NCBI GenBank assembly: GCA_046758065.1
Contig: JBHHZM010000001.1
Span: 7,822-71,821 of the forward strand
Source of the DNA: Alphaproteobacteria bacterium
Lineage (GTDB): Bacteria > Pseudomonadota > Alphaproteobacteria > JAAXGF01
Length of the DNA stretch: 64,000 bases
Direction of reading: 5' to 3'
In this document: positions 1 to 47,244 of the stretch, piece after piece
Numbering within the stretch: position 1 is the stretch's first letter
Layout of the letters: each line of letters starts with the position of its first letter
Translations under genes and position numbers: made by a program
The notes under the pieces: generated by a model
Seen by the model: only the letters and a program-made list of their open reading frames with translations
Told to the model about the DNA's origin: nothing
Database searches by the model: none

Positions 1-2707
1 CGAGGGCCTGCTCGCCGACGACGCCGACGCACCGCCGGCGGTCTCCGATCTCGCACGCCGGATGCTGCTCGCCCGCCTGATCGCTGAGTGGCCCGGCAGC
101 AGCGCCTTCAGTCGCGTCGAACAGGCGGCGCGTCTCGCCGCCGAACTTGCGCGACTCATCGACCAGGTGCAGACCGAGCGGCTGTCGTTCGACACGCTTG
201 GCGACCTCGTGCCTGAGGACTATGCGACCCACTGGCAGGAGACGCTCGAGTTCCTCGCCATCGTCACCCGGCACTGGCCCGAGATCCTCGCCGAACGGGG
301 GCTGATCGATCCGGCGGCGCGGCGCAACCTGATGATCGAGGCGCTCGCCGCACGCTGGCGCGCCCGCCCGCCCGCCGGACCGGTGATCGCCGCCGGTTCG
401 ACCGGCAGCATACCGGCGACCGCCGAACTGCTGGCGGTGATCGCCCGCCTGCCGGCCGGCGAGGTCGTGCTGCCCGGGCTCGACCGCGAAGCCGACGACG
501 CGACCTGGGAGGCGATCGACGCGAGCCATCCGCAATACGGCCTCAAACGGCTTCTCGACCGCCTCGAAATCGACCGCGACCGGGTCGGCGACTGGTTCGT
601 GACGGGCCTTACCGCGACCCATCCCGGCCGCGCCCGGTTGCTCTCGATCGCCCTGCGCCCGGCCGGGACGACCGATTCCTGGCGCGACGAGCCGCCGCCG
701 CCCGCCGCGGCGTTCACCGGCCTCGAACGCATCGATTGCCCGGGACCGCAGGAAGAGGCCGGGGTGATTGCGCTCAGGCTGCGCGAGGCGCTCGAACACG
801 ACGGCCGGACCGCCGCGCTCGTCACGCGCGACCGCAAGCTCGCCCGCCGTGTCGCCGCCGAACTGCGGCGCTGGGGCATCGGGGTCGACGATTCGGCCGG
901 TCAGCCGCTGGCCGACACGGCGCCCGGAAGTTTCCTCAGGCTCGGCGCTGCGATGGTCGCCGAAAAAGCGGCGCCGCTTGCGCTGCTAGCCGCGCTCAAG
1001 CATCCGCTCGCCGCAGGCGGCGTCAGGGCCGGCGTGTTCCGCGCCCGGGTGCGCGAACTCGAGCGCCGGGTGTTGCGCGGACCGCGGCCCGACCAAGGCT
1101 TCGGAGGAATCGCCCGGGTTCTCGACGAAACCAAGGCGCCCGCCGCGCTGCGGCGCTGGTTCTCCGGTCTCGCCGCCGCCGCAGACGCGTTCGCCACGCT
1201 GATCGCGGCGCCCGATGCGCGCCTGGCCGCGCTCGTCCGCGCCCATCTCGGCTTCGCCGAATGGCTTGCGGCCACCGATCGCGAACCCGGCGCCTCCCGG
1301 CTCTGGTCGGGCGAGGCCGGCGAGGCTGCCGCCGCCTTCTTCGCCGATCTCGTCGAGGACGCGCAAACGCTGCCGCCGTTCGCCGGGCGCGCGTATCCGG
1401 CGCTGCTCGACAGCCTGCTGGAAGGACGCGTGGCGCGGCCCCGTCACGGCCGGCATCCCCGGCTTCACATCTGGGGCCCCCTCGAGGCGCGCCTGCAGCG
1501 CGCCGACCTGATGATCCTCGGCGGTCTCAACGAGGGCAGCTGGCCGCCGGAGGCCCCGGCCGATCCCTGGCTCAGCCGGCCGATGCGCGCCCGCTTCGGT
1601 CTGCCGCCGCCCGAGCGCCGCATCGGCCTCGCCGCCCATGACTTCGTGCAATGCGCCTCGGCCGGACAGGTCGTCCTCACCCGCGCCGAAAAAGTCGATG
1701 GCACGCCCACGGTGCCGTCGCGCTGGCTCGCGCGACTTGATAACCTGCTCGCCGGCTGGCGGCGCGCCGGCCGGATCGTTCCGCGGACGCCGTGGCGCGA
1801 ATGGCAGCTCGCGCTCGATCGGCCGGACGCCGTGGTTCCCTGCGCGCCGCCGGCGCCCAAGCCGCCGCTCGCGGCGCGCCCGCGCCGGCTTTCCGTTACC
1901 GCGATCGAGACCTGGCAGCGCGATCCCTATGCGATCTACGCCCGCCGCATTCTCGGGTTGAAGCCGCTCGATCCGATCGACGCCGATCCCGGCGCCGCCG
2001 AGCGCGGCAGCATCATCCACGACGCGCTCGACAGCTTCGTCCGCGCCCACCCCGGCCGCCTGCCCGACGACGCCCTCGACCGGCTTCTGGCGTGCGGCGA
2101 GACGGCATTCGGCGGCGCGCTCGACCGCCCCGGTGTGCGGGCGTTCTGGTGGCCGCGTTTCGTCCGCATCGCCCGCTGGTTCGTCGAGACCGAACGGCAA
2201 CGGCGCGATGGCCTCGCGGGTCTGTGGACCGAGGTCGAGGGCGAGCGCGCGTTCGAAGGGCCCGGCGGAACGTTTGTCCTGACGGCCAAGGCCGATCGCA
2301 TCGAACGGGACACTGGCGATTGCCTCGCCATCATCGACTACAAGACCGGAACCCTGCCGAGCAAGGGCGATATCGAGCAGGGCTATTCGCCGCAGCTTCC
2401 GCTCGAAGCGGCGATCGCCGCGGCGGGCGGTTTCGCCGGGGTGCCGGCGGGCGGGATCGCGACGCTCTCATATTGGCGGCTGACCGGCGGTGAGCCCGCC
2501 GGAAAGGAATGTCCCCTGACACTCGACGCCATGGCAAGCGCCGAGAACGCCGCCGCCAGACTCGAAGCTCTGATCGCCGCGTTCGACGATCCCGCGACGC
2601 CTTATCATGCGCTTCCCGATCCGGCGAAGGCGCCGCGGTTCAACGACTACGACCATCTCGCCCGCGTTCGGGAATGGGCCGACATCGGCGACGAGGGCGA
2701 GCCGTGA
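1..2707 (+). CDS. addB: Double-strand break repair protein AddB (5' end lies upstream of the window)
   Basis: The reading frame is open from base 2. The C-terminal region carries the PD-(D/E)xK nuclease signature (IIDYKTG). The gene overlaps addA by 4 nt. Confidence 0.85.
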   Translation, partial: EGLLADDADAPPAVSDLARRMLLARLIAEWPGSSAFSRVEQAARLAAELARLIDQVQTERLSFDTLGDLVPEDYATHWQETLEFLAIVTRHWPEILAERGLIDPAARRNLMIEALAARWRARPPAGPVIAAGSTGSIPATAELLAVIARLPAGEVVLPGLDREADDATWEAIDASHPQYGLKRLLDRLEIDRDRVGDWFVTGLTATHPGRARLLSIALRPAGTTDSWRDEPPPPAAAFTGLERIDCPGPQEEAGVIALRLREALEHDGRTAALVTRDRKLARRVAAELRRWGIGVDDSAGQPLADTAPGSFLRLGAAMVAEKAAPLALLAALKHPLAAGGVRAGVFRARVRELERRVLRGPRPDQGFGGIARVLDETKAPAALRRWFSGLAAAADAFATLIAAPDARLAALVRAHLGFAEWLAATDREPGASRLWSGEAGEAAAAFFADLVEDAQTLPPFAGRAYPALLDSLLEGRVARPRHGRHPRLHIWGPLEARLQRADLMILGGLNEGSWPPEAPADPWLSRPMRARFGLPPPERRIGLAAHDFVQCASAGQVVLTRAEKVDGTPTVPSRWLARLDNLLAGWRRAGRIVPRTPWREWQLALDRPDAVVPCAPPAPKPPLAARPRRLSVTAIETWQRDPYAIYARRILGLKPLDPIDADPGAAERGSIIHDALDSFVRAHPGRLPDDALDRLLACGETAFGGALDRPGVRAFWWPRFVRIARWFVETERQRRDGLAGLWTEVEGERAFEGPGGTFVLTAKADRIERDTGDCLAIIDYKTGTLPSKGDIEQGYSPQLPLEAAIAAAGGFAGVPAGGIATLSYWRLTGGEPAGKECPLTLDAMASAENAAARLEALIAAFDDPATPYHALPDPAKAPRFNDYDHLARVREWADIGDEGEP

Positions 2708-5700
2708 GCGCCGCGCAACGCACGCGCCTCCCCCGTCGGCGCATCGACGCGCCGCAGCGCAACGCCGCCGATCCGGGCGGTTCGGTCTGGGTCGCGGCCT
2801 CGGCGGGCACCGGCAAGACCAAGGTGCTCACCGACCGGGTGCTGCGTCTGCTGCTCGACGGCGCGCCGCCCGAGAAGCTTCTCTGTCTCACCTTCACCCG
2901 CGCGGCGGCGGCCGAAATGGCGAATCGCATCAACGCCGAGCTCGGCCGCTGGACGACCGACGACGACCCGGAGCTCGACGCCAATCTCGAAGCGTTGACC
3001 GGAACGCCGCCCGACGACGCCCTGCGCCGCCGTGCCCGCCGCCTGTTCGCCGCCGTGCTCGATGCCCCGGGCGGCCTCAAGATCATGACCATACACGCCT
3101 TTTGTCAGTCTCTCCTGGGGCGCTTTCCGGTCGAGGCGGGCATCGCGCCGCACTTCGACGTGCTCGATGAGCGCGCCGCCGCCGAGCTCATGTACGCCGC
3201 TCAGGAAAGTGTTCTCGGAAGCGCCCGGGCGGGCCGTGACGCCTTGCTCGGCGACGCGCTTGCCGAGGTCGCCGGCCACACCGACGAGGGCTCGTTCCGC
3301 GATCTGCTGGAAAGACTGCGCGGCCTGCGCGGCCGTCTGCGGGCGCTGATCGCCGCCAACCATGGCCTCGACGGGCTGATCGCGGCGACCTTCCGCCTGC
3401 TCGGCGTCGAGGCCGGCGAAACCGTCGACAACGTCCTCCTCGCGGCCTGCGCCGAGGGCGCCTTCAACCGCGAGGCGCTCGGCGCCGCGGTCCATGCGCT
3501 CAAGGGTGGTAGCACCACGGATCGCAAACGCGGCACGCAAATCGCCTGTTGGCTCGCGGCGTCCCGCCACGAACGGCCGGCGTTGTTCGAGGACTACAAG
3601 AAGGCGTTCCTCACCGCCGCCGGCGTCCCCCGCAAGGACTTGATGACCAAGGCGGTGCGCGAAGGCAACCCGGAAGCCTTCGAGGCGTTGCTGGTGGAAC
3701 AGATGGGCCTCGCGCGGGTGATCGAGCGTCGCAACGCCGTTATCGTGGCGCGCGCGACCGCCGCGCTGCTGCGGCTCGGCGGGGCGATGCTCGACGCCTA
3801 CGACCGGCGCAAGCGGGTGATCGCCCGTCTCGACTACGACGATCTGATACTGGGCGCGATGGGGCTGCTCGAACGGCGCGACGCGGCGCCCTGGGTGCTC
3901 TACAAGCTCGACGGCGGTCTCGACCACATCCTGGTCGATGAAGCGCAGGACACCAGCCCCGAACAGTGGCGGGTGATCGCCGCGATTGCCGACGAGTTCT
4001 TCGCCGGCCGCGGGACGCGCGAAACGGCGCGTACGCTGTTCGTCGTCGGCGACGAGAAACAGTCGATCTTCAGTTTCCAGGGCGCCGACCTCGACGAGCT
4101 CGACCGCGTACGCGCTCATTTTCGCGACAAGGCGGCGGCGGAACGACGCTGGCGGGAAGTGCCGCTCGACCGTTCGTTCCGCTCGGTTCCCGCCGTGCTG
4201 CGGGCGGTCGATGCGGTGTTCGCGCTCGCCGGCGCGCGCGACGGCGTCGCCTTCGCCGATCACGCGATCCGCCACAGCGCCGAACGCAAGGGCCATGCCG
4301 GCCGGGTCGAACTGTGGCCGGTGGTGGGCCCCGCCGAGGACGCCGACGACGCCTCGTGGGCGCCGCCGCTCGCGCGCAAGCCGAGCGAGCGGCCGAACGC
4401 GCGCCTCGCCGGGCATATCGCGGCGACCGTCGGGCGCTGGCTCGATGCCGGCGAAATTCTCGAATCGCGCGGCCGGTCGGTGCGCGCCGGCGATATTCTC
4501 GTGCTGGTGCGCACGCGCTCGGCTTTCGTCGGCGAGTTGCTGCGCGCGCTCAAGGCCCGCGGCGTGGCGGTCGCCGGCAGCGACCGCATGGTGCTGGGCG
4601 ATCAGCTCGCGGTCATGGACCTGACGGCGCTCGCCGAGTTCCTGCTGCTGCCCGACGACGATCTGACCCTCGCCTGCGTGCTCAAGGGGCCGCTGATCGG
4701 TCTCGACGAGGACGCGCTGTTCGATCTCGCCTACGGCCGCAAGGGCGGCCTGTGGCGCGAGCTCGTGCGCCGGCGCGACGAACGCGCCGACTTCGCCCGC
4801 GCCCACGACACGCTCGCCGGTCTGCTCGCCCGCGCCGATTTCACCCCGCCCTACGAACTGTTCGCCGATCTGCTCGGCGCCGGCAAGGGGCGGCGGCGGC
4901 TGGTGGCGCGTCTCGGCCCCGACGCCAACGACCCGATCGACGAGTTCCTCGCGCTCGCTCTCGACTACGAACGCGTCGCCCCGCCTTCGCTACAGGGATT
5001 TCTGCACTGGGTGGCGACGGGCGACGACCAGATAAAGCGCGACCTCGATCAGGGCCGCGACGAGGTGCGGGTTATGACCATTCACGGCGCCAAGGGCCTC
5101 GAAGCGCCGATCGTCTTCCTACCCGACACGACGACCGTACCGCGCTCGCAGGGACCGCAGATCCTGTGGCGCGACGCGGCGCCCGAGGCCCTGCTGTGGC
5201 CGGTGCGCACCGGGTACTACGAGACGTGCTGCCGCGCGGCGTCCGACGCCATGCGCGAGCGCGACATGCAGGAGTACCGCCGGTTGCTCTACGTCGCGAT
5301 GACGCGCGCCGCAGATCGCCTTTACGTCTGTGGCTGGCGCGGCAAGCACGAGATGCCCGGCGACTGCTGGTATCGGCTGATCGAGACGGGACTCGCGCCG
5401 GTGGCCGAACCCTTCGCATTCGACGGCGGCGATGGTTGGCGCGGGCAGGGCCTGCAATTGGTCGACCGCCAGACGCGCAAGCTGCCGACGCCGGCCGCGG
5501 CGCGCGCGGCGACGGCGGCGCCCGCGGCACTGCCCGGTTTCGCCCGCGAGGCGCCGGCGCCCGAACCGGCGCCGCCCTGGCCGCTCGCGCCCTCGCGTCC
5601 CGAATCGGCCGAGGCCGCGCCGCTGTCGCCGCTGGCCGCCGGCGACGATGGCGCGCGCTTCCGCCGCGGGCGGCTCATCCACCGGCTTCTCGAGCTGTTG

Positions 5701-10541: not shown

Positions 10542-11380
10542 CTAACGGCGCGCCGCCCGCACGCCGCCCGCGAGGTCGGCGACGAGCCCGAGCACGTCGT
10601 CGACCAGCCCGGGTTTGGCGGCGCCGTCGGCGTCGAGGTTGGCGGCGACCCGGTCGACCAGCGCCGAGCCGACCACCGCGGCGTCGGCGACGCGCGCCAC
10701 GGCCGCGGCCCGATCGGGGGTCTTGATGCCGAAGCCGACGGCGACCGGGAGCGCCGTGTGGCGGCGCAGGCGGGCGACCGCCTTGCCCACCAGTTCGGCC
10801 GAGGCGCCCTTCGCGCCGGTGATGCCGGTGATCGAGACGTAGTACATGAAGCCCGAGGTGTTGGCGACCACGGCGGGCAGGCGCGCGTCGTCGGTCGTCG
10901 GCGTGGCGAGCCGGATGAAGTTGACGCCGGCCTCGATCGCCGGCAGGCAGAGTTCCTCGTCCTCCTCGGGGGGCAGGTCGACGACGATCAGTCCGTCGAC
11001 GCCGGCGTCGATGGCGTCGGCGAGGAAGCGCCCGTTGCCGTAGATGTAAATCGGGTTGTAATAACCCATCAGAACGATCGGGGTGTCGGGGTCGTCGGCG
11101 CGGAAGGCGCGCACCATGCCGAGCGTCGCGGCCATCGTTTGCCCCGCCCTGAGCGCGCGCTGTCCCGAAGCCTGAATCGACGGGCCGTCGGCCATGGGAT
11201 CGGTAAACGGCATGCCGATCTCGATCAGATCGGCGCCCGCCGCCGGGAGTCCGCGCAGGATCTCGAGCGACCGGGCCGGATCGGGATCACCCGCCGAGAC
11301 GAAGGTGACGAAACCGCCGCGCCCTTCCTCGGCCAGCGCGGCGAAGCGGCGCGAGACGCGCGCCGTGCCCGAGGCGTCCT

Positions 11381-11384
<4 letters not shown>
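10542..11384 (-). CDS. trpA: Tryptophan synthase alpha chain
   Basis: TrpA motifs are present ([30 protein letters not shown]). The GTG start overlaps the trpB stop by 4 nt. Confidence 0.9.
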
Positions 11385-12592
<1,208 letters not shown>

Positions 12593-12631
12593 CCCGCTCC
12601 TCGCTCTTTCCCTCGCTCGCTTCGCCGTCGG

Positions 12632-13280
12632 TCACAGCGCCGCGACCGCCGCGAGAAACGCCGCGATCTTCTCCGGGCTCTTGTGGCCGCGCCGGTCCTC
12701 GACCCCCGAGGACACGTCGACCATCCGGGCGCCGCTGATCGCGACCGCCTCGGCGACGTTGCCGGCGTCGAGCCCGCCCGACAGCATCCACGGCGCCGGC
12801 CAGTCCCGTCCGGCGAGCAGCCGCCAGTCGAAGGCCAGGGCATTGCCCCCGGGCAGCGCGCCTTCGAACGTCGCCGGCGCGCGGGCGTCGAACAGGAGCC
12901 AGTCGGCGACTTCGGCGAAACGCTCGGCAGTCTCGACGTCTCCCTTGCCGGCGATGCGAATGGCCTTCATGACCGGGACGCCGAACCGCGCGCGCACCGC
13001 CGCGACCCGCTCGACGCTCTCGTCGCCGTGAAGCTGGAGAAGATCGAGCGTGACCTCGGCAAGCGTCGCGGCCAGCACGCCATCGTCGGGCTCGACGAAC
13101 AAGCCGACCTTGCATACCCCACCAGGCACTGCGTCGGCAAGCGCCGCCGCTTGCCTCGGCGTCACGTGGCGCGGCGAGGGCGGGTAGAAATTGAGGCCGA
13201 TGTGGCTCGCGCCGCCCGATACCGCGGCGACCATCGCGTCGGCGGCGTTGATGCCGCAGATCTTGGCGGTGACCGGCATG
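12632..13280 (-). CDS. trpF: Phosphoribosylanthranilate isomerase
   Basis: The sequence beginning [10 protein letters not shown] has a TrpF TIM-barrel signature. The ORF-track N-terminal extension is rejected. Confidence 0.85.
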
Positions 13281-13289
13281 CGCGAGTGC

Positions 13290-14021
13290 TCAGCCGCCGG
13301 CCCCGGCCACGTCTTCGAGGATGCGCCGCGCCGCCGCCGGCGGATCATCGGAACGGGTGATGGGCCGGCCGATGACGAGATAGTCGGCGCCCCGCCGCAT
13401 GGCGTCGGCCGGGGTGACGATGCGCTTCTGATCGTCGGCCGACGACCAGGCGGGGCGGATTCCCGGCACCACGAGCTTGAAGTCTTCGCCGCATTGCGCG
13501 CGCAGATCGGTAATCTCGTAGGCCGAGGCGACAACGCCGTCGAGACCGTTCTCCTGCGCGAGGCCGGCGAGGCGGCGGACCTGATCGGGAAGCGGTCCCC
13601 TCATGCCCACCGCCGCGACGTCGTCGTCGTCGAAGCTGGTCAATACGGTGATGCCGACGACCAGAGGCCGGCGGCCGCCGTTGCCCTCGCCGACCCGGAA
13701 CGAGGCGGCCATCGCCGCGCGCAGCATCGCCGGACCGCCGGCGACGTGCACGGTAATCATGAACGGGTTGAAAGCGGCCGAGGCGCGAATGGCGCCGGCC
13801 ACCGTGTTCGGGATGTCGTAGAACTTGAGATCGAGGAACAGCGGCAGCCCGCTTTCCGTCACGGCGGCCACCCCCGCCGGACCGTGCGCGGTGCAGAATT
13901 CGAGCCCCAGCTTGACGCCGCCGACGACGCCCGGAAGCGAACGCGCGATCGAAACGGCGCCGTCGAGGTCGACCGTATCGATGGCGCAAAGCAGACGCTT
14001 CGCGGCTTCGGTTTCTGTCAT
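13290..14021 (-). CDS. pyrF: Orotidine 5'-phosphate decarboxylase
   Basis: Key motifs are DLKFYDIPNTV and GADYLVIGRPI. The start was chosen at MTETEAAKRLL. Confidence 0.85.
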   Translation of the reverse strand: MTETEAAKRLLCAIDTVDLDGAVSIARSLPGVVGGVKLGLEFCTAHGPAGVAAVTESGLPLFLDLKFYDIPNTVAGAIRASAAFNPFMITVHVAGGPAMLRAAMAASFRVGEGNGGRRPLVVGITVLTSFDDDDVAAVGMRGPLPDQVRRLAGLAQENGLDGVVASAYEITDLRAQCGEDFKLVVPGIRPAWSSADDQKRIVTPADAMRRGADYLVIGRPITRSDDPPAAARRILEDVAGAGG

Positions 14022-39716: not shown

Positions 39717-39924
39717 GATGTCTTCCTTCCCGGCGCGCTTCGCGATGGCCGCAGATTAGCCCCGGCGCGGCAATCTTTCAATGTCTGAATAAATGTTTCA
39801 TGTCAGGAATATAACCGCCCCATCGCCCGCGCATGCACGCCGGCTCACAGCTGCGGCTAAGATCGATGAGCGATGATCCGGGTTGAGATCGGCGCGGGGG
39901 AACGTCCGGATGACGGTTGCCGGA

Positions 39925-41451
39925 TCAAAGTTTCCAGCGACGAGCGATTCTTTTCTTGCGGTCTTTAATAGCCTTTTCCACCTTTTTTTTATACGCGTCG
40001 ATGGTGCCAACCCGACGTTTCGCTTCGCGGGCCAACTGAGTGTCCAAGCGCAGGTCCACGGCCTCATCCCCGAGATCCCACTCCTTGTTATCGGGCTCGA
40101 TCCCGAGGTTCCATTCGATCGAAGCGGCGACCGAAAGGTAGGGCGCCTCCGTAAATTTCTCGAGGTGGCTGCTTTCAGCAGGGCCCTCCCCCTCAAGATT
40201 GGCCCATTCGCCAGAAAACGCAAAATGAGGCAATTTTATAGATAGATATTTTTTACATGAAGCGGGCGTTACGAATTCGTAATAATCACTCCATTTTTCT
40301 TCCGCTTTAAATAGCTTAGTAAACTCCTTTTCTTTAAAATTAAAAAAACCTAATGGATAATTGTCCAATTTCGTAATGCAGGAATCCCAATAAGTAATAG
40401 GATATGACATAGCACGAGCATTAACTCGCACCTCGAAGAAATTGCCATCCTTTAACTGCCCTCTAAAAATGAGCGCATGGCATATTTGAAAGGCAGCCCT
40501 GGGTGGCTCACTCTCCCCAACCGGAACGATGGTGAGCCAGATTTCGCGGACTCGCCGGGCTGTCACGTCTTTCGCCTCTATCACGCCGTCCGGAAGGTTG
40601 CGAGGATTACGATCGTAACGGTCGAACGGGGGATGTGTGCCTTTGAGAATCACGGTGGCATCTTCGACAATGAACCGCGCTGATGCCAAGACGTCGCCCA
40701 TCACCTGATAGATCAGGATGCCCGGCACCCAGCAAAGGTCGTCTAACCCAGAATAGGATTGATCATGGATATAATCAAATTCACCGTAACGACTATCTCC
40801 GGGATCAATTCCTATAATTGTTCCTTCTTTATCGAATAGAACACTGTTGTTCATTATGAACGAAAAATATTCATCCAGAGAATATTTTTTCGCAACCCAA
40901 TCGCACATGCCGCGCAACATGTCGCTGATGGTATGGCACCATTCCGCTTCGCTGCTTTGGATACTCTTATCCGCGGACAGATAATCCGTACCTTCAAAGA
41001 GTCGGAGAAGAAATGCATCTTCTTGCTTGTCAAGCGCCTTGGCCGCCTCTTGCGCAATTTTAATATAACCACGCGTACTCTGGGTAAGTTTTCTCCTTCT
41101 TTCTTTTTTCTTTTCTTCCGGAAGATCAGAGTCGAGCGCATATTGTGGCAGACGCTTGGTCGAGTCTTCCGGTTTGCCGTATCCGGCGGCATGTAAAATC
41201 TCCGATTTTCGGATGCCGCCTCGCTCGACTTGTTCAAGGATGGCCCAGAGATTCTCGGCGACAACCCCTCTCTCTCGGGGTTTGTTCATTCGGGGACGTT
41301 GTTCAAGGGCTGCCTTCAGGCTCTGACGGCGCTGGTCCTGATATGCGGCGTGTTGCTTTTCTTCTTCCTCGCGCCGTTTAGCCCTTTTTGGGCGTTCTTC
41401 CGGCGTGGACGAACCATGACGCGAGGAAAAGTCGATAACGTTGTCGGTCAT
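39925..41451 (-). CDS. Hypothetical protein (508 aa) of unknown function in the low-GC islet
   Basis: The N-terminal 60 aa are a charged K/R/E-rich stretch (PEERPKRAKRREEEEKQ). A globular region follows that I cannot assign to any family. The AT-rich codon usage is foreign to the host. The ATG at 41451 overlaps the upstream gene's stop (ATGA). Confidence 0.6.
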   Translation of the reverse strand: MTDNVIDFSSRHGSSTPEERPKRAKRREEEEKQHAAYQDQRRQSLKAALEQRPRMNKPRERGVVAENLWAILEQVERGGIRKSEILHAAGYGKPEDSTKRLPQYALDSDLPEEKKKERRRKLTQSTRGYIKIAQEAAKALDKQEDAFLLRLFEGTDYLSADKSIQSSEAEWCHTISDMLRGMCDWVAKKYSLDEYFSFIMNNSVLFDKEGTIIGIDPGDSRYGEFDYIHDQSYSGLDDLCWVPGILIYQVMGDVLASARFIVEDATVILKGTHPPFDRYDRNPRNLPDGVIEAKDVTARRVREIWLTIVPVGESEPPRAAFQICHALIFRGQLKDGNFFEVRVNARAMSYPITYWDSCITKLDNYPLGFFNFKEKEFTKLFKAEEKWSDYYEFVTPASCKKYLSIKLPHFAFSGEWANLEGEGPAESSHLEKFTEAPYLSVAASIEWNLGIEPDNKEWDLGDEAVDLRLDTQLAREAKRRVGTIDAYKKKVEKAIKDRKKRIARRWKL

Positions 41452-41819
41452 TGCCAGAGCCTCCGATGCCTTTGCCGCCAGCGATTCAACCGGCCGGGGC
41501 TGTGCCGCGGACGACGGCGTCGCGCCCGTTGGCCATGGACATGCAAGACCGTGACGATATGGCCGGTCTCTTCGCAGCGAATCACCACGAGGTTTGCGGC
41601 CCGCTCGACCAGACCGGGCGCATAGCCATCCGCCATAAGGGATGCGGTCTTCCGGCGGCTGATCTGCATCGAAATGCATCCGCGCCCCGCATTCAGCTCG
41701 ATGTCGCCGTGTTCGTCGATCAATTGTACCGCCTCGGACGGGATTCCGCGCTGTTGAAGCCGCCTGAGCGCGTGCCGCGTCATATGCGAGTGAGCGTTGA
41801 AGTATTCCATGTCCTGCAT
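41448..41819 (-). CDS. DUF4258-like small protein (toxin-like family), first gene of the islet operon
   Basis: MEYFNAHSHMTRHALRRLQQRGIPSEAVQLI ... GHIVTVLHV fits the DUF4258 pattern (F..HA..Rm.eRgI ... iITV) as I recall it. Confidence 0.55.
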   Translation of the reverse strand: MQDMEYFNAHSHMTRHALRRLQQRGIPSEAVQLIDEHGDIELNAGRGCISMQISRRKTASLMADGYAPGLVERAANLVVIRCEETGHIVTVLHVHGQRARRRRPRHSPGRLNRWRQRHRRLWQ

Positions 41820-42182
41820 CCCTCTCGTTGTCATGGCGGGATTGTCCTACACTCCAATCAACGGCGCATTCCAAAACTGGAAATTATAGAGGAATTTTAT
41901 TAGGAAGAAAATTTAGAATTCGACGGTATATCACGAGAAGATATTAGGTATATATCTGGCGCTTCGTATGGAACCGCTAAGCGCGACGGTTCGTAGACGG
42001 GCATCTCGCCGCTCGAACCGACCGGGATTACGGACATCTTGATTTTTGTGACCGTTGGCCGGTGCGGCGGGCATTCGGGCCAGCCGCCGTCATGCTGTCG
42101 AAGATCATGGGTTTGAGGTGTATATTTTCGTGGTTGCTCTCTCAAACGTTGCGGGGTCTCGGAAATGCGGCGACACGATACG

Positions 42183-42685
42183 ATGACGGTGGGGAACGCC
42201 GCCGAGGCTTTGGCCGTCCGTCTCCTGAAGGAGCACGGCTTCGACGTCGTGAACCTGAACGAGCGCCGGCGGAACTATCCCGTGTTCGACTTGCTCGCGC
42301 GCAAGCAGGGGCGCGACATCAGGATTTCGGTCAAATGCGCGCGGGCCAAGCGCGAACTGCGACTCGGTAAGCCGCAAACCCTTGAGAAAATGCCCGACGA
42401 GGGTGTCGTGATGGCGTCCTGCCCGTCGCCAAGGGCGAAGAGATCGACCTCGACGGCGGTCGTTATGAGCTATGGATCATCCCCGGCAACGTCGCGCGCG
42501 ACGAGGGCCTGAAAATGCATCGGCCTTATGCCGCGGCGCGCCCGGGCAGCGCCAATCATTCAGTGATGGTCAAGGACAAGGTGGACCGGAGCCCGCATAC
42601 GCGCTCGGGAGCGGTGTTCAGGAGTTGGCGCGACCGTTTCCAGGATGCGTGGCAGGTTTTGGAGCCCGGATACCAGCACGCATGA
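42183..42685 (+). pseudogene. Frameshifted PD-(D/E)xK nuclease-like (Mrr-cat/YraN-like) gene remnant
   Basis: Frame A reads MTVGNAAEALAVRLLKEHGFDVV ... VFDLLARKQGRDIRISVKCA up to about 42413. The sequence continues in the -1 frame (VLPVAKGEEIDLDGGRYELWIIPGN ...) to a TGA at 42683-42685. Confidence 0.4.
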
Positions 42686-42891
42686 TTCCAGCCGACTCGC
42701 GCGTTCCGTTCATGAGGATCGTTCGGCGGGTTTGAACGCCCCATCGCCCGGTGCTTGCGTATCCCTCATCGCCGCCGGTTGATCCAGGTCAAGTCGGGCG
42801 GGGGTGGTTGGCGTCACACTCCAGTTCGTGGGAGTCCGCGTCGTCATGCGGGGTTCCGCGCCGCGAGGCGCTCGAAAACGGGGACCGCGCC

Positions 42892-45587: not shown

Positions 45588-45855
45588 TGCGCGGGCGGCG
45601 GCGCGACGGGCGCCACGGCGCCGCAGGCCGCAGCCGGCCGCAGGGATTAGGAAAAAATTCACGAAAAATCGCCCGAGGTGTGACGGCCGTCACTGGTTAA
45701 TCACGTTAGTCATATATGATAGCCGGCGCCGCATGCCGTACGACGTTCGTGACGGTCCGTCGCCGCTTCCGGGAGGGCGTCCCAAAATCTCGGATACATA
45801 ATGCATGTCTGCGGCTTGCGAAGACAAAAAATTCAAGAAAGACAATAGAATTTAG

Positions 45856-47244
45856 ATGATCAGAGTCTTCAAACATTATATACCTACACCGTTCTTGGTT
45901 CTCTGTGTAATAGAGAACCTTATACTCGTCGTTTCAATATATTCCGCCATATATATCCGATACTTCAATGTCTCCTACGCGCCCGGGGCGATAGCGGAAT
46001 ATCTTCCGGAGGCGTTGACTTTCGCCGGCGCGATTCTGCTCACGATGTTCGCGGTCGGCCTGTACCGGCGCGAACACAGCCAGGATCTGCGCGCCGTCTT
46101 CTTTCGCCTGATCGCCAGCTTCGGTCTTGCCTTGATCGCGCTGTCGCTCGTTTTCTACGTCTTTCCCGACCTCAAGATCTGGCGCAGCGCCTTCGCCGTC
46201 GCCGTGATCCTGGCGCTTGTCGGTATCCTCGCGGCGCGCTTCGTCTTTCTCAAGCTGTGTGACCGCGCGGCGTTCAAACGGCGGATTCTGGTCCTGGGGG
46301 CGGGCGCGCGCGCGGCACACATCGAACGCCTGGAAACCGATGGCGAGGCGCAGAGTTTTACCCCGATAGGATTTCTGGCCACGCCTGACGCCGAGACGTG
46401 CGTGAACCCGTCGCGCGTTCTTTCCGGTGTCAACTCGCTCGCCGCCTTCGCCCGCGATCATGGTGTCGAGGAGATCGTGGTCGCCGTCGAGGATCGGCGC
46501 GCAGGCTTGCCGGTCGAGGCGCTTCTCGAATGCAAGCTCGAAGGAATATCGGTCACCGATTATCCCGGTTTCTGCGAGCGCGAGACCGGTCAGGTGGACC
46601 TCGATTCCCTGCAGCCGAGTTGGCTCATCTTCTCGGACGGATTCGTCACCGGACCGGTGCGCAACGTGCTGAAGCGCGGCTTCGACATCGTCGCAAGCCT
46701 CGTGCTCCTGGTCTTTACCTTTCCCCTGATCGCAACGGCGGCACTGGCGGTTCGTCTGGAGAGCCACGGCCCGATTTTCTACCGCCAGGAGCGCATTGGG
46801 CTCGCCGGGCGCCCGTTCATGCTGCTCAAGTTCCGAAGCATGAAGGTCGATGCCGAAGACGACGGCGTGCCGCGTTGGGCGGCGGCGAAAGACAGCCGCG
46901 TCACCCGCGTCGGGGCTTTCATTCGCAAGACGCGCATCGACGAGCTGCCGCAAATCTTCAACGTGCTCAAAGGCGAAATGAGCTTCGTCGGACCGCGGCC
47001 CGAGCGCCATTATTTCGTCGATCAACTGAGCGCCCAAGTGCCGTATTATTCCGAACGCCACCGGGTCAAACCCGGCATCACGGGCTGGGCACAACTCAAT
47101 TACCCTTATGGCGCCTCGATCGACGACGCCAAGGCGAAGCTGCAATACGATCTGTATTATGTTAAGAATTATAGTGCATTCCTCGACCTGAGCATATTGA
47201 TGCAGACGATTCGCGTCGTCTTGTGGCCAGAGGGAGTTCGCTGA
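45856..47244 (+). CDS. Exopolysaccharide polyprenyl-phosphate glycosyl-1-phosphate transferase (EpsB-family, PEP-CTERM-system associated)
   Basis: An N-terminal TM bundle precedes the C-terminal bacterial sugar transferase domain ([13 protein letters not shown] ... [22 protein letters not shown]). The 5' region is AT-rich. It lies directly upstream of prsK. Confidence 0.85.

Follow-up and report, generated by a model that had tools for sequence, protein, structure and literature searches.

A conserved gene pair resembling a toxin-first toxin-antitoxin module, preceded by a phased repeat array, in a low-GC islet of an alphaproteobacterial genome

The subject of this work is a pair of overlapping genes located in 64,000 nucleotides of DNA from an Alphaproteobacteria bacterium (GTDB lineage JAAXGF01; GenBank assembly GCA_046758065.1, contig JBHHZM010000001.1, positions 7,822 to 71,821), a stretch that as a whole is called here the window. 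The pair encodes a small basic protein and, directly downstream, an acidic protein of 508 residues, and we lean towards reading it, with moderate confidence, as a self-contained and horizontally mobile module similar to toxin-antitoxin (TA) systems of type II, with the toxin gene coming first. The two genes are conserved together, they overlap, their products have complementary charges, and they are preceded by phased repeats whose core covaries with a single residue of a predicted helix-turn-helix (HTH) domain in the large protein; the pair is found sporadically, as a low-GC insertion. Its distinctive traits are an antitoxin candidate of around 500 residues, a C-terminal domain without structural match and a multi-copy phased operator. 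As neither Pfam nor NCBIfam, PADLOC or PHROGs contains the pair, the proposal of the first-pass annotation that it represents an undescribed system holds. The features on which the argument is based are the following.

39925..41451, minus strand: large gene, ATG at 41451, 508 residues, acidic product from a family without annotation, putative autorepressor and antitoxin
41448..41810, minus strand: small gene, 120 residues from the ATG at 41810 or 128 residues from the ATG at 41834, putative toxin; the protein consists of a DUF4258/Ntox49-like core, residues ~18-100 in the 128-residue numbering, and an Arg-rich tail
41448..41451, minus strand: ATGA stop/start overlap, in which the TGA of the small gene (41448-41450) overlaps the ATG of the large gene
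41035..41280, minus strand: HTH domain of the large protein (residues ~58-139), XRE/Cro-C1-like by prediction, where conservation within the family is highest
41149..41163, minus strand: codons of the near-invariant STK[RH]L motif (S97-T98-K99-R100-L101), putative DNA-recognition element
40048..40842, minus strand: C-terminal domain of the large protein (residues ~204-468), beta-rich, indel-rich and fast-diverging, putative toxin-binding and/or sensor domain
41868..41951, minus strand: candidate operator array, five cores in the same orientation at spacings of 22, 22, 12 and 12, then an inverted copy
41883..41888, minus strand: TATAAT, candidate -10 box between the repeats, directly upstream of the palindrome

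Both open reading frames (ORFs) correspond to loci ACE5H8_00200 and ACE5H8_00205 of this metagenome-assembled genome (MAG) at NCBI, each labelled hypothetical. The first-pass annotation, which was made from the letters alone, had described two ORFs joined by an ATGA overlap, and this arrangement was confirmed on the minus strand, where the junction reads ...CTCTGGCAATGACCGAC... and implies translational coupling. The strings that it quoted from the small protein, HALRRLQQRGI and IVTVLHV, are also present, and the large protein starts, as it stated, with the charged, KR/E-rich stretch MTDNVIDFSSRHGSSTPEERPKRAKRREEEEKQ. A 4-nucleotide overlap or a near-abutment of the two genes was likewise found in six other loci (L008, L009, L010, L014, L015 and L016). 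The start of the small gene is ambiguous, with candidate ATGs at 41834, 41819, 41810 and 41783. The Shine-Dalgarno-like sequence GAGAGGG lies 9 nucleotides upstream of the ATG at 41810, which is the start in the NCBI record, and directly abuts the ATG at 41819, the start chosen in the first-pass annotation.

Two further ORFs overlap the small gene, one of 649 residues on the same strand (39925-41874, minus), which is an extension of the large ORF, and one of 150 residues in antisense (41451-41903, plus), the latter being what another gene caller annotated in L001/L002 and L018 in place of the small gene. Both are high-GC shadow ORFs, in such a way that conservation at the protein level across loci was detected only in the frame of the small gene. 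The antisense ORF was rejected as a gene, its only conservation being that of a shadow. A frameshifted small-large fusion, or the 649-residue extended ORF, was also rejected, as the Arg-rich tail of the small protein is conserved as protein and none of 150 relatives is fused. Since all the homologues of the small protein carry an Arg/Lys-rich tail, of 25-35 residues, the tail in the window is genuine coding sequence and not an out-of-frame reading.

The association between the two genes was studied across genomes. A homologue of the small gene was found immediately upstream of the large one and on the same strand in all 14 independent loci (hidden Markov model (HMM) E-values from 1e-20 to 1e-49). 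These comprise the window, 11 fetched member contigs, a Rhodospirillales MAG found in the GTDB genomes by a subfamily-alignment search and the Microvirga terrae plasmid pR24_2 from PLSDB, and they include loci that were not used in HMM building and one where the gene caller chose the antisense strand. A degenerate DNA pattern for G-x-G-x3-[DE]STK[RH]L-x2-[YF]A retrieved 13 metagenome stretches, seven of them true members; the upstream DNA is intact in four, all of which carry the small gene, another is cut off by the contig end, and the remaining two, the short contigs L028 and L024, showed no detectable small gene. Overall, the pair was found together in 18 of the 20 loci with readable upstream DNA, so the first-pass annotation, which would have given up its proposal had the two genes never co-occurred elsewhere and the small ORF lacked support from the DUF4258 HMM, stands on this point. 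No third recurring gene was detected in an all-against-all clustering of every ORF of the loci, from which only the two families emerged, and no fusion of small and large protein was found among the 150 relatives. In PLSDB the sole match of each protein was the same Microvirga terrae operon, and the phage and viral collections gave no matches. The pair is, as type II TA operons are, formed by two adjacent and co-oriented genes that are inherited together.

The small protein was compared with DUF4258, the family (PF14076) to which its pattern had been assigned at first sight. The HMMER search against Pfam gave a match with an E-value of 0.0021 over profile positions 1-69 of 71, with a score of 18.8 bits, which is below the gathering threshold of 25 bits. 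In the small family, that is the window protein and 17 homologues from other loci, the match was below an E-value of 0.01 in 7 of the 18 members, with a best score of 20.6 bits. The similarity proposed in the first-pass annotation is supported by the extent of the match and by the invariance of a His and an Arg, and the formal family assignment is not; the protein is only DUF4258/Ntox49-like, with a divergent, sub-threshold sequence. In a core alignment of the 18 sequences (~35% identity), H21, R25, G30 and T95 are invariant, and Q28, R29, D44 and S59 are present at 90% or more. The residues H21 and R25 (H8 and R12 in the numbering of the core alignment) are conserved in 18 of 18 sequences and match the "H, [KR]" signature of Ntox49, for which a BECR fold was predicted (Zhang et al. 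2012, PMC3482391); Ntox49 has been equated with DUF4258 (2026 preprint, bioRxiv 10.64898/2026.08.28.747851). Within type II TA modules DUF4258 is counted as one of the BECR toxins, its canonical members have no experimentally defined target, and fusions of DUF4258 to MqsA, an XRE-HTH protein, are known in toxin-antitoxin order (Gerdes 2025, PMC11980606). An alpha+beta fold of the BECR class (Barnase-EndoU-ColicinE5/D-RelE) may be proposed for the small protein from its residue pattern. The Microvirga terrae homologue was named by PGAP as a DUF4258 domain-containing protein. The isoelectric point (pI) is 11.6 for the window protein, and the family median is 11.4. No match to the window small protein was found in PADLOC or NCBIfam, nor anything significant in profile searches of PDB sequences with HMMER; among nine small proteins scanned, one gave a weak PADLOC match to AbiEi (E=0.0034).

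The large protein has no family match in Pfam, NCBIfam, PADLOC or PHROGs, in such a way that no housekeeping family, a finding that the first-pass annotation had named as fatal to its proposal, was hit. Nor, apart from the marginal match given below, did 44 relatives that were scanned one by one match any of these libraries. At an E-value of 0.01 or lower none of 45 family members (the window protein and 44 relatives) matched anything in Pfam, HTH_3 and its relatives included, and one of the 45 gave a marginal PADLOC match to DpdC (E=0.0077). Word-index searches at the protein level recovered nothing beyond the cluster of the query, whether they started from the large protein, the small one or a profile of 45 sequences, and an exhaustive phmmer search of 1.84 billion cluster representatives yielded 224 relatives of the large protein with E-values of 1e-3 or lower, 122 of them at 1e-10 or lower. 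These are mostly 450-600 residues long, with the similarity concentrated in residues ~20-210. The family is rare, since nearly all of the ten relative clusters checked are singletons, and it has been seen so far mainly in alphaproteobacterial MAGs. The median pI of the family is 5.4.

The structure of the large protein was modelled with AlphaFold2 from a 110-sequence alignment, with a predicted local distance difference test score (pLDDT) of 82.9 and a predicted TM score (pTM) of 0.81, whereas a pLDDT of only 38 was obtained from the single sequence. In the predicted architecture, residues 19-51 form a long charged helix and 58-202 a helical domain; a beta-rich region follows, with strands of unusual length at 244-263, 290-309 and 318-332, then a mixed region and, at 469-507, a long C-terminal helix. 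In the model an XRE-type HTH was recognised near the N-terminus, with the five helices of a lambda-repressor-like fold, and in the Foldseek comparison, which the first-pass annotation had suggested, the C-terminal domain had no PDB or viral match. The XRE fold is seen by predicted structure and has no sequence-family match. Conservation peaks at residues 61-160, and in the STK[RH]L motif S is present in 90%, T in 91%, K in 95% and L in 93% of the 110 sequences, with R/H at 62/25%. For the C-terminal domain, nothing significant was found by Foldseek in PDB and BFVD or by HMMER in PDB sequences; it lacks transmembrane segments, and no other part of the protein is as poorly conserved or as rich in indels. 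In the C-terminal half conservation is limited to positions with Pro, Gly or Leu and to T440 (Ser in the window) and E446, a pattern that speaks against an enzyme.

Upstream of the small gene, and read on the gene strand, the array is made of ATACC (41951-41947), ATACC (41929-41925), CTTCC (41907-41903), ATTCC (41895-41891), TTTCC (41883-41879) and the inverted GGAAT (41872-41868), the last two copies forming the palindrome TTCC-N6-GGAA (41882-41869). Only the 5-nucleotide core recurs, with unrelated spacers; Tandem Repeats Finder detected no array in these repeats, and Rfam gave no match. A consensus promoter scan called no full promoter upstream of the small gene because the -35 box is weak. 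Between three and seven copies in the same orientation, 11-12 or 22 bp apart, were found upstream of the small gene in nearly every locus (L003-L033), the arrays ending in an inverted copy that generates a palindrome next to this gene. Over 18 loci, 75 motif copies were counted against 28 +/- 5 in 2000 shuffles, and 37 of 57 adjacent spacings were in phase (11/12/22/23/33/34/44/45) against 1.2 +/- 1.1 (maximum 6) in 2000 shuffles, figures that are somewhat flattering because the motifs were defined after inspection of the sequences. The histogram of spacings has sharp peaks nonetheless, 11-12 accounting for 18 of them and 22-23 for 16.

Lineages differ in the core of the array, with TTCC at 12 loci as against CCC or CCGC at six, and the inverted copy changes alongside. 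This core covaries with residue 100 of the large protein in 18 of 18 loci (TTCC with STKRL in 12/12, CCC/CCGC with STKHL in 6/6), a suggestive agreement that amounts to few independent events, and not to proof, because maybe only two or three clades are involved. The covariation points to the STK[RH]L motif of the HTH as the element that would read the repeats. Also, the position of the array directly on the promoter of its own operon fits autoregulation, and the predicted DNA-binding domain and the candidate operator together correspond to what is expected of a type II TA operon.

The horizontally acquired islet in which the first-pass annotation had placed the pair is real by its composition, with a GC content of 0.37-0.64 over ~39.8-42.75 kb, that is ~2.9 kb, against 0.66-0.72 in the flanks. 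The GC of the pair itself is 0.52 against 0.68-0.69 in its flanks, and it was below that of the flanks in eight of nine loci. An exact 14-nucleotide direct repeat, CGCCCCATCGCCCG, is present at the intergenic borders of the islet (39816-39829 and 42737-42750); no shared 14-mer appeared in 3000 shuffles of the two ~205-nucleotide border intervals, where the maximum was 13. These repeats enclose the pair and a divergent, frameshifted PD-(D/E)XK-like gene, which is not conserved beside the pair elsewhere and lies outside the conserved module. No integrase was found within the islet, the empty insertion site (left flank, 14-mer and right flank) was not found in the JGI metagenomes, and none of the eight other loci showed convincing flanking direct repeats. 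By eye, and without family search, the ORFs that flank the islet are glutamate-synthase-like genes and a thiamine-pyrophosphate enzyme.

The PD-(D/E)XK-like gene (42165-42685, plus strand) showed weak matches to SMEK_N, PDDEXK_5, Mrr_cat and YraN and needs a frameshift near 42405-42415 to reach ...EPGYQHA*; either the gene is a pseudogene or the assembly is in error. The contigs of the Logan assemblies SRR29324609 and SRR29324611 (L001 and L002), which are independent of each other, both end at 42011, ~60 nucleotides past the array, possibly owing to variation between strains or to a break in coverage at the islet. Unrelated to the pair, GC falls a second time (0.47-0.58) in the intergenic region at 45600-46050, ahead of the ORF at 45856-47244, by eye an exopolysaccharide sugar-transferase gene.

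In other genomes the pair lies between housekeeping genes (L003, L008, L010 and L011) or adjoins Gp49/HTH_37 (HigBA-like), PIN/MazE (VapBC-like) and DUF433/PIN pairs (L003, L009 and L019). Two loci are on plasmids, one with Rep3, a resolvase and methyltransferases as neighbours (L013) and the other being pR24_2 of Microvirga terrae R24 (L015; NZ_CP102847.1, 75.3-87.7 kb), the sole copy found in a cultured strain, where the proteins of the operon are WP_173949787.1 / WP_259061120.1. This sporadic and island-associated distribution is, as judged from the neighbourhoods, the pattern of TA and defence modules. Apart from this, EH_Signature and SNF2-helicase genes (Zorya ZorC/ZorD-like) were seen at 1-5116 directly upstream of the pair in L006, with two tyrosine-recombinase genes downstream at 11023-13578; on pR24_2, in a region that looks like a defence island, the products encoded upstream are an HTH regulator, one protein of the reverse transcriptase family and one with a TIR domain, and an "Abi family protein" is encoded downstream.

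In the model that we favour, the small basic protein would be a divergent RNase toxin of the DUF4258/Ntox49 type, with a BECR fold, in which His21 and Arg25 would be catalytic and the Arg-rich tail would help the binding of RNA or the ribosome. The large acidic protein, translationally coupled to it, would act as antitoxin and as autorepressor of the operon. Its XRE-like HTH would read short half-sites via STK[R/H]L, and the protein, probably bound as a cooperative oligomer, would occupy the promoter-proximal palindrome and three to six upstream half-sites, one or two helical turns apart. Its large and fast-evolving C-terminal domain would hold the toxin, and may also sense a trigger, through proteolysis or the binding of a phage product, with release of the toxin as the result. 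The toxicity and RNase activity of the small protein, the DNA binding by the large one and a role in defence are in this scheme what we infer from the features described above, and neutralisation of one protein by the other is suggested indirectly by the pairing of a basic with an acidic protein (pI 11.4 against 5.4).

Several observations weigh against this model. Antitoxins are not typically 500 residues long, and TA loci do not usually have phased operators in multiple copies; the covariation of residue and operator, as said, may go back to very few events. None of the 18 small proteins tested reached the gathering score of DUF4258, in several of them the match is confined to the N-terminal helix, and the usual order for DUF4258 is given as antitoxin/toxin (Gerdes 2025, PMC11980606), the reverse of the one here. 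Neighbourhoods rich in defence or TA genes were seen in only around half of the loci, and PADLOC-DB v2 gave no match for the window proteins. Two short contigs carry a relative of the large gene without a detectable small gene; one of them (L028) has a coverage of 1.6, a chimeric look and an adapter-like end, and the other (L024) is divergent, without the NLW motif, and truncated, so that both may be artefacts or may depart from strict pairing. In a bolder version, for which we see about one chance against several, the pair would be a new abortive-infection or defence family, in which the HTH protein polymerises on the array and sequesters the DUF4258-like RNase, its C-terminal domain senses phage proteins, and infection both releases the RNase and derepresses the operon.

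Four other explanations are less well supported than the toxin-first TA-like model. One is that the roles are reversed, or that there is no poison and antidote at all, the large protein being an effector through its C-terminal domain and the small one a regulator, chaperone or nucleic-acid cofactor. The antitoxin comes first in most type II operons, and usually so with DUF4258 (PMC11980606), the DUF4258 similarity of the small protein is sub-threshold and partly due to one helix, and the C-terminal domain matches no known fold. However, this domain has no conserved constellation of polar residues, T440 and E446 being the only polar positions that are conserved, nor transmembrane segments, and it is the poorest in conservation and the richest in indels; the HTH and the covariation with the operator belong to the large protein, as expected of an antitoxin and repressor, and the extreme basicity and invariant His and Arg of the small one are those expected of an RNase toxin. 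We regard this exchange of roles as improbable. Slightly less so, though still unlikely, is a module for DNA organisation or maintenance, with the large protein coating the repeat array and the small one as an accessory DNA or RNA binder, for plasmid or island stability or for silencing. Proteins that coat repeat arrays are well known, such as ParR on parC, omega on heptads and Rep on iterons, and three to seven half-sites at 11-12/22 bp plus an inverted copy resemble the layout of centromeres or iterons, the two plasmid loci being in line with it. Yet neither a partition NTPase nor a Rep-family domain nor an origin-like feature accompanies the pair, only the two families recur, most loci are chromosomal and among housekeeping genes, and an array on the operon's own promoter is in keeping with autoregulation.

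The exact 14-nucleotide repeat that brackets the ~2.9-kb low-GC islet, and the insertion of the pair at unrelated sites across genomes, would also be compatible with machinery of a mobile element, in which the large protein would be a recombinase or transposase of a new type and the copies in the array would serve as its end-binding sites, which are multiple in Tn7 and Mu as well. This we consider very improbable: the array is one-sided, with none downstream of the large gene, no conserved DDE, Ser or Tyr catalytic signature was seen, the eight other loci have no flanking direct repeats, and those of the window enclose a third, unrelated gene. There is next to no chance, finally, that the direct repeats upstream of the toxin-like gene encode an antitoxic RNA as in type III systems. 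The recurrence of nothing but a 5-nucleotide core, with the negative results of Tandem Repeats Finder and Rfam, speaks against it, and the repeats overlap the candidate -10/-35 boxes and are not in a transcribed leader before a terminator. A type III RNA antitoxin was rejected, as the ToxIN-like tandem array of ~36-nucleotide RNA repeats between promoter and toxin gene was not found.

If the toxin-first TA-like model is true, the pair would define a new class of partner for BECR/DUF4258 toxins, namely an HTH antitoxin of large size, one domain of which seems to have a new fold. It would also offer a compact and testable case of DNA-recognition specificity, in which the change between TTCC and CCC/CCGC half-sites goes with a change between Arg and His at one position. 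As the pair is present in a cultured strain, Microvirga terrae R24 (pR24_2), assays of toxicity, neutralisation, operator binding and phage defence are immediately feasible. Because the family is rare and mainly known from alphaproteobacterial MAGs, its general importance is modest unless a role in defence is demonstrated.

Compared with known systems, the bulky two-domain putative antitoxin recalls AbiEi of the AbiEi/AbiEii pairs (type IV TA, abortive infection), itself a bulky two-domain antitoxin whose N-terminal DNA-binding domain autorepresses via repeats and whose C-terminal domain handles the toxin. AbiEi, however, has a winged HTH, the AbiE toxin is a nucleotidyltransferase encoded second, and there is no sequence relationship beyond the single weak PADLOC match of one small protein. 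In omega-epsilon-zeta and ParR/parC, several short repeats in the same orientation lie on one face of the DNA and overlap the promoter, with cooperative binding of multiple protomers and tight autoregulation, and the array described here is likewise phased, of the same orientation and overlapping the promoter. Whereas those binders are small ribbon-helix-helix dimers, the putative binder here is an XRE-HTH in a 500-residue protein, and the pair has neither a separate regulator gene nor a partition ATPase.

With HigB-HigA, Gp49-HTH and MqsR-MqsA the pair, as read here, shares a toxin gene followed by an XRE-HTH antitoxin expected to autorepress, a basic toxin with an acidic antitoxin, and a sporadic, horizontally acquired distribution, often beside other TA pairs. 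Unlike in them, the putative antitoxin is four to five times larger, with a fast-evolving C-terminal domain of apparently novel fold and no sequence match to HTH_3 or related Pfam families, and a phased half-site array plus palindrome takes the place of one or two palindromes. From DUF4258/Ntox49 toxins the small protein differs in its position below the Pfam threshold in 18 of 18 members, in its Arg-rich tail of 25-35 residues and in what seems, from inspection of the sequence, an extra helical insert between strand pairs, and its partner has ~500 residues as against the ~100-130 of HicB/MqsA-type antitoxins. It has in common with these toxins the N-terminal helix motif H-A-x-x-R-x-x-x-R-G-I, the conserved His and Arg/Lys, a core of ~80 residues and a terminal "(I/V)(I/V)T(V)" strand, and the pair as a whole shares with the DUF4258-MqsA fusions an XRE-type HTH partner and the order toxin, then antitoxin.

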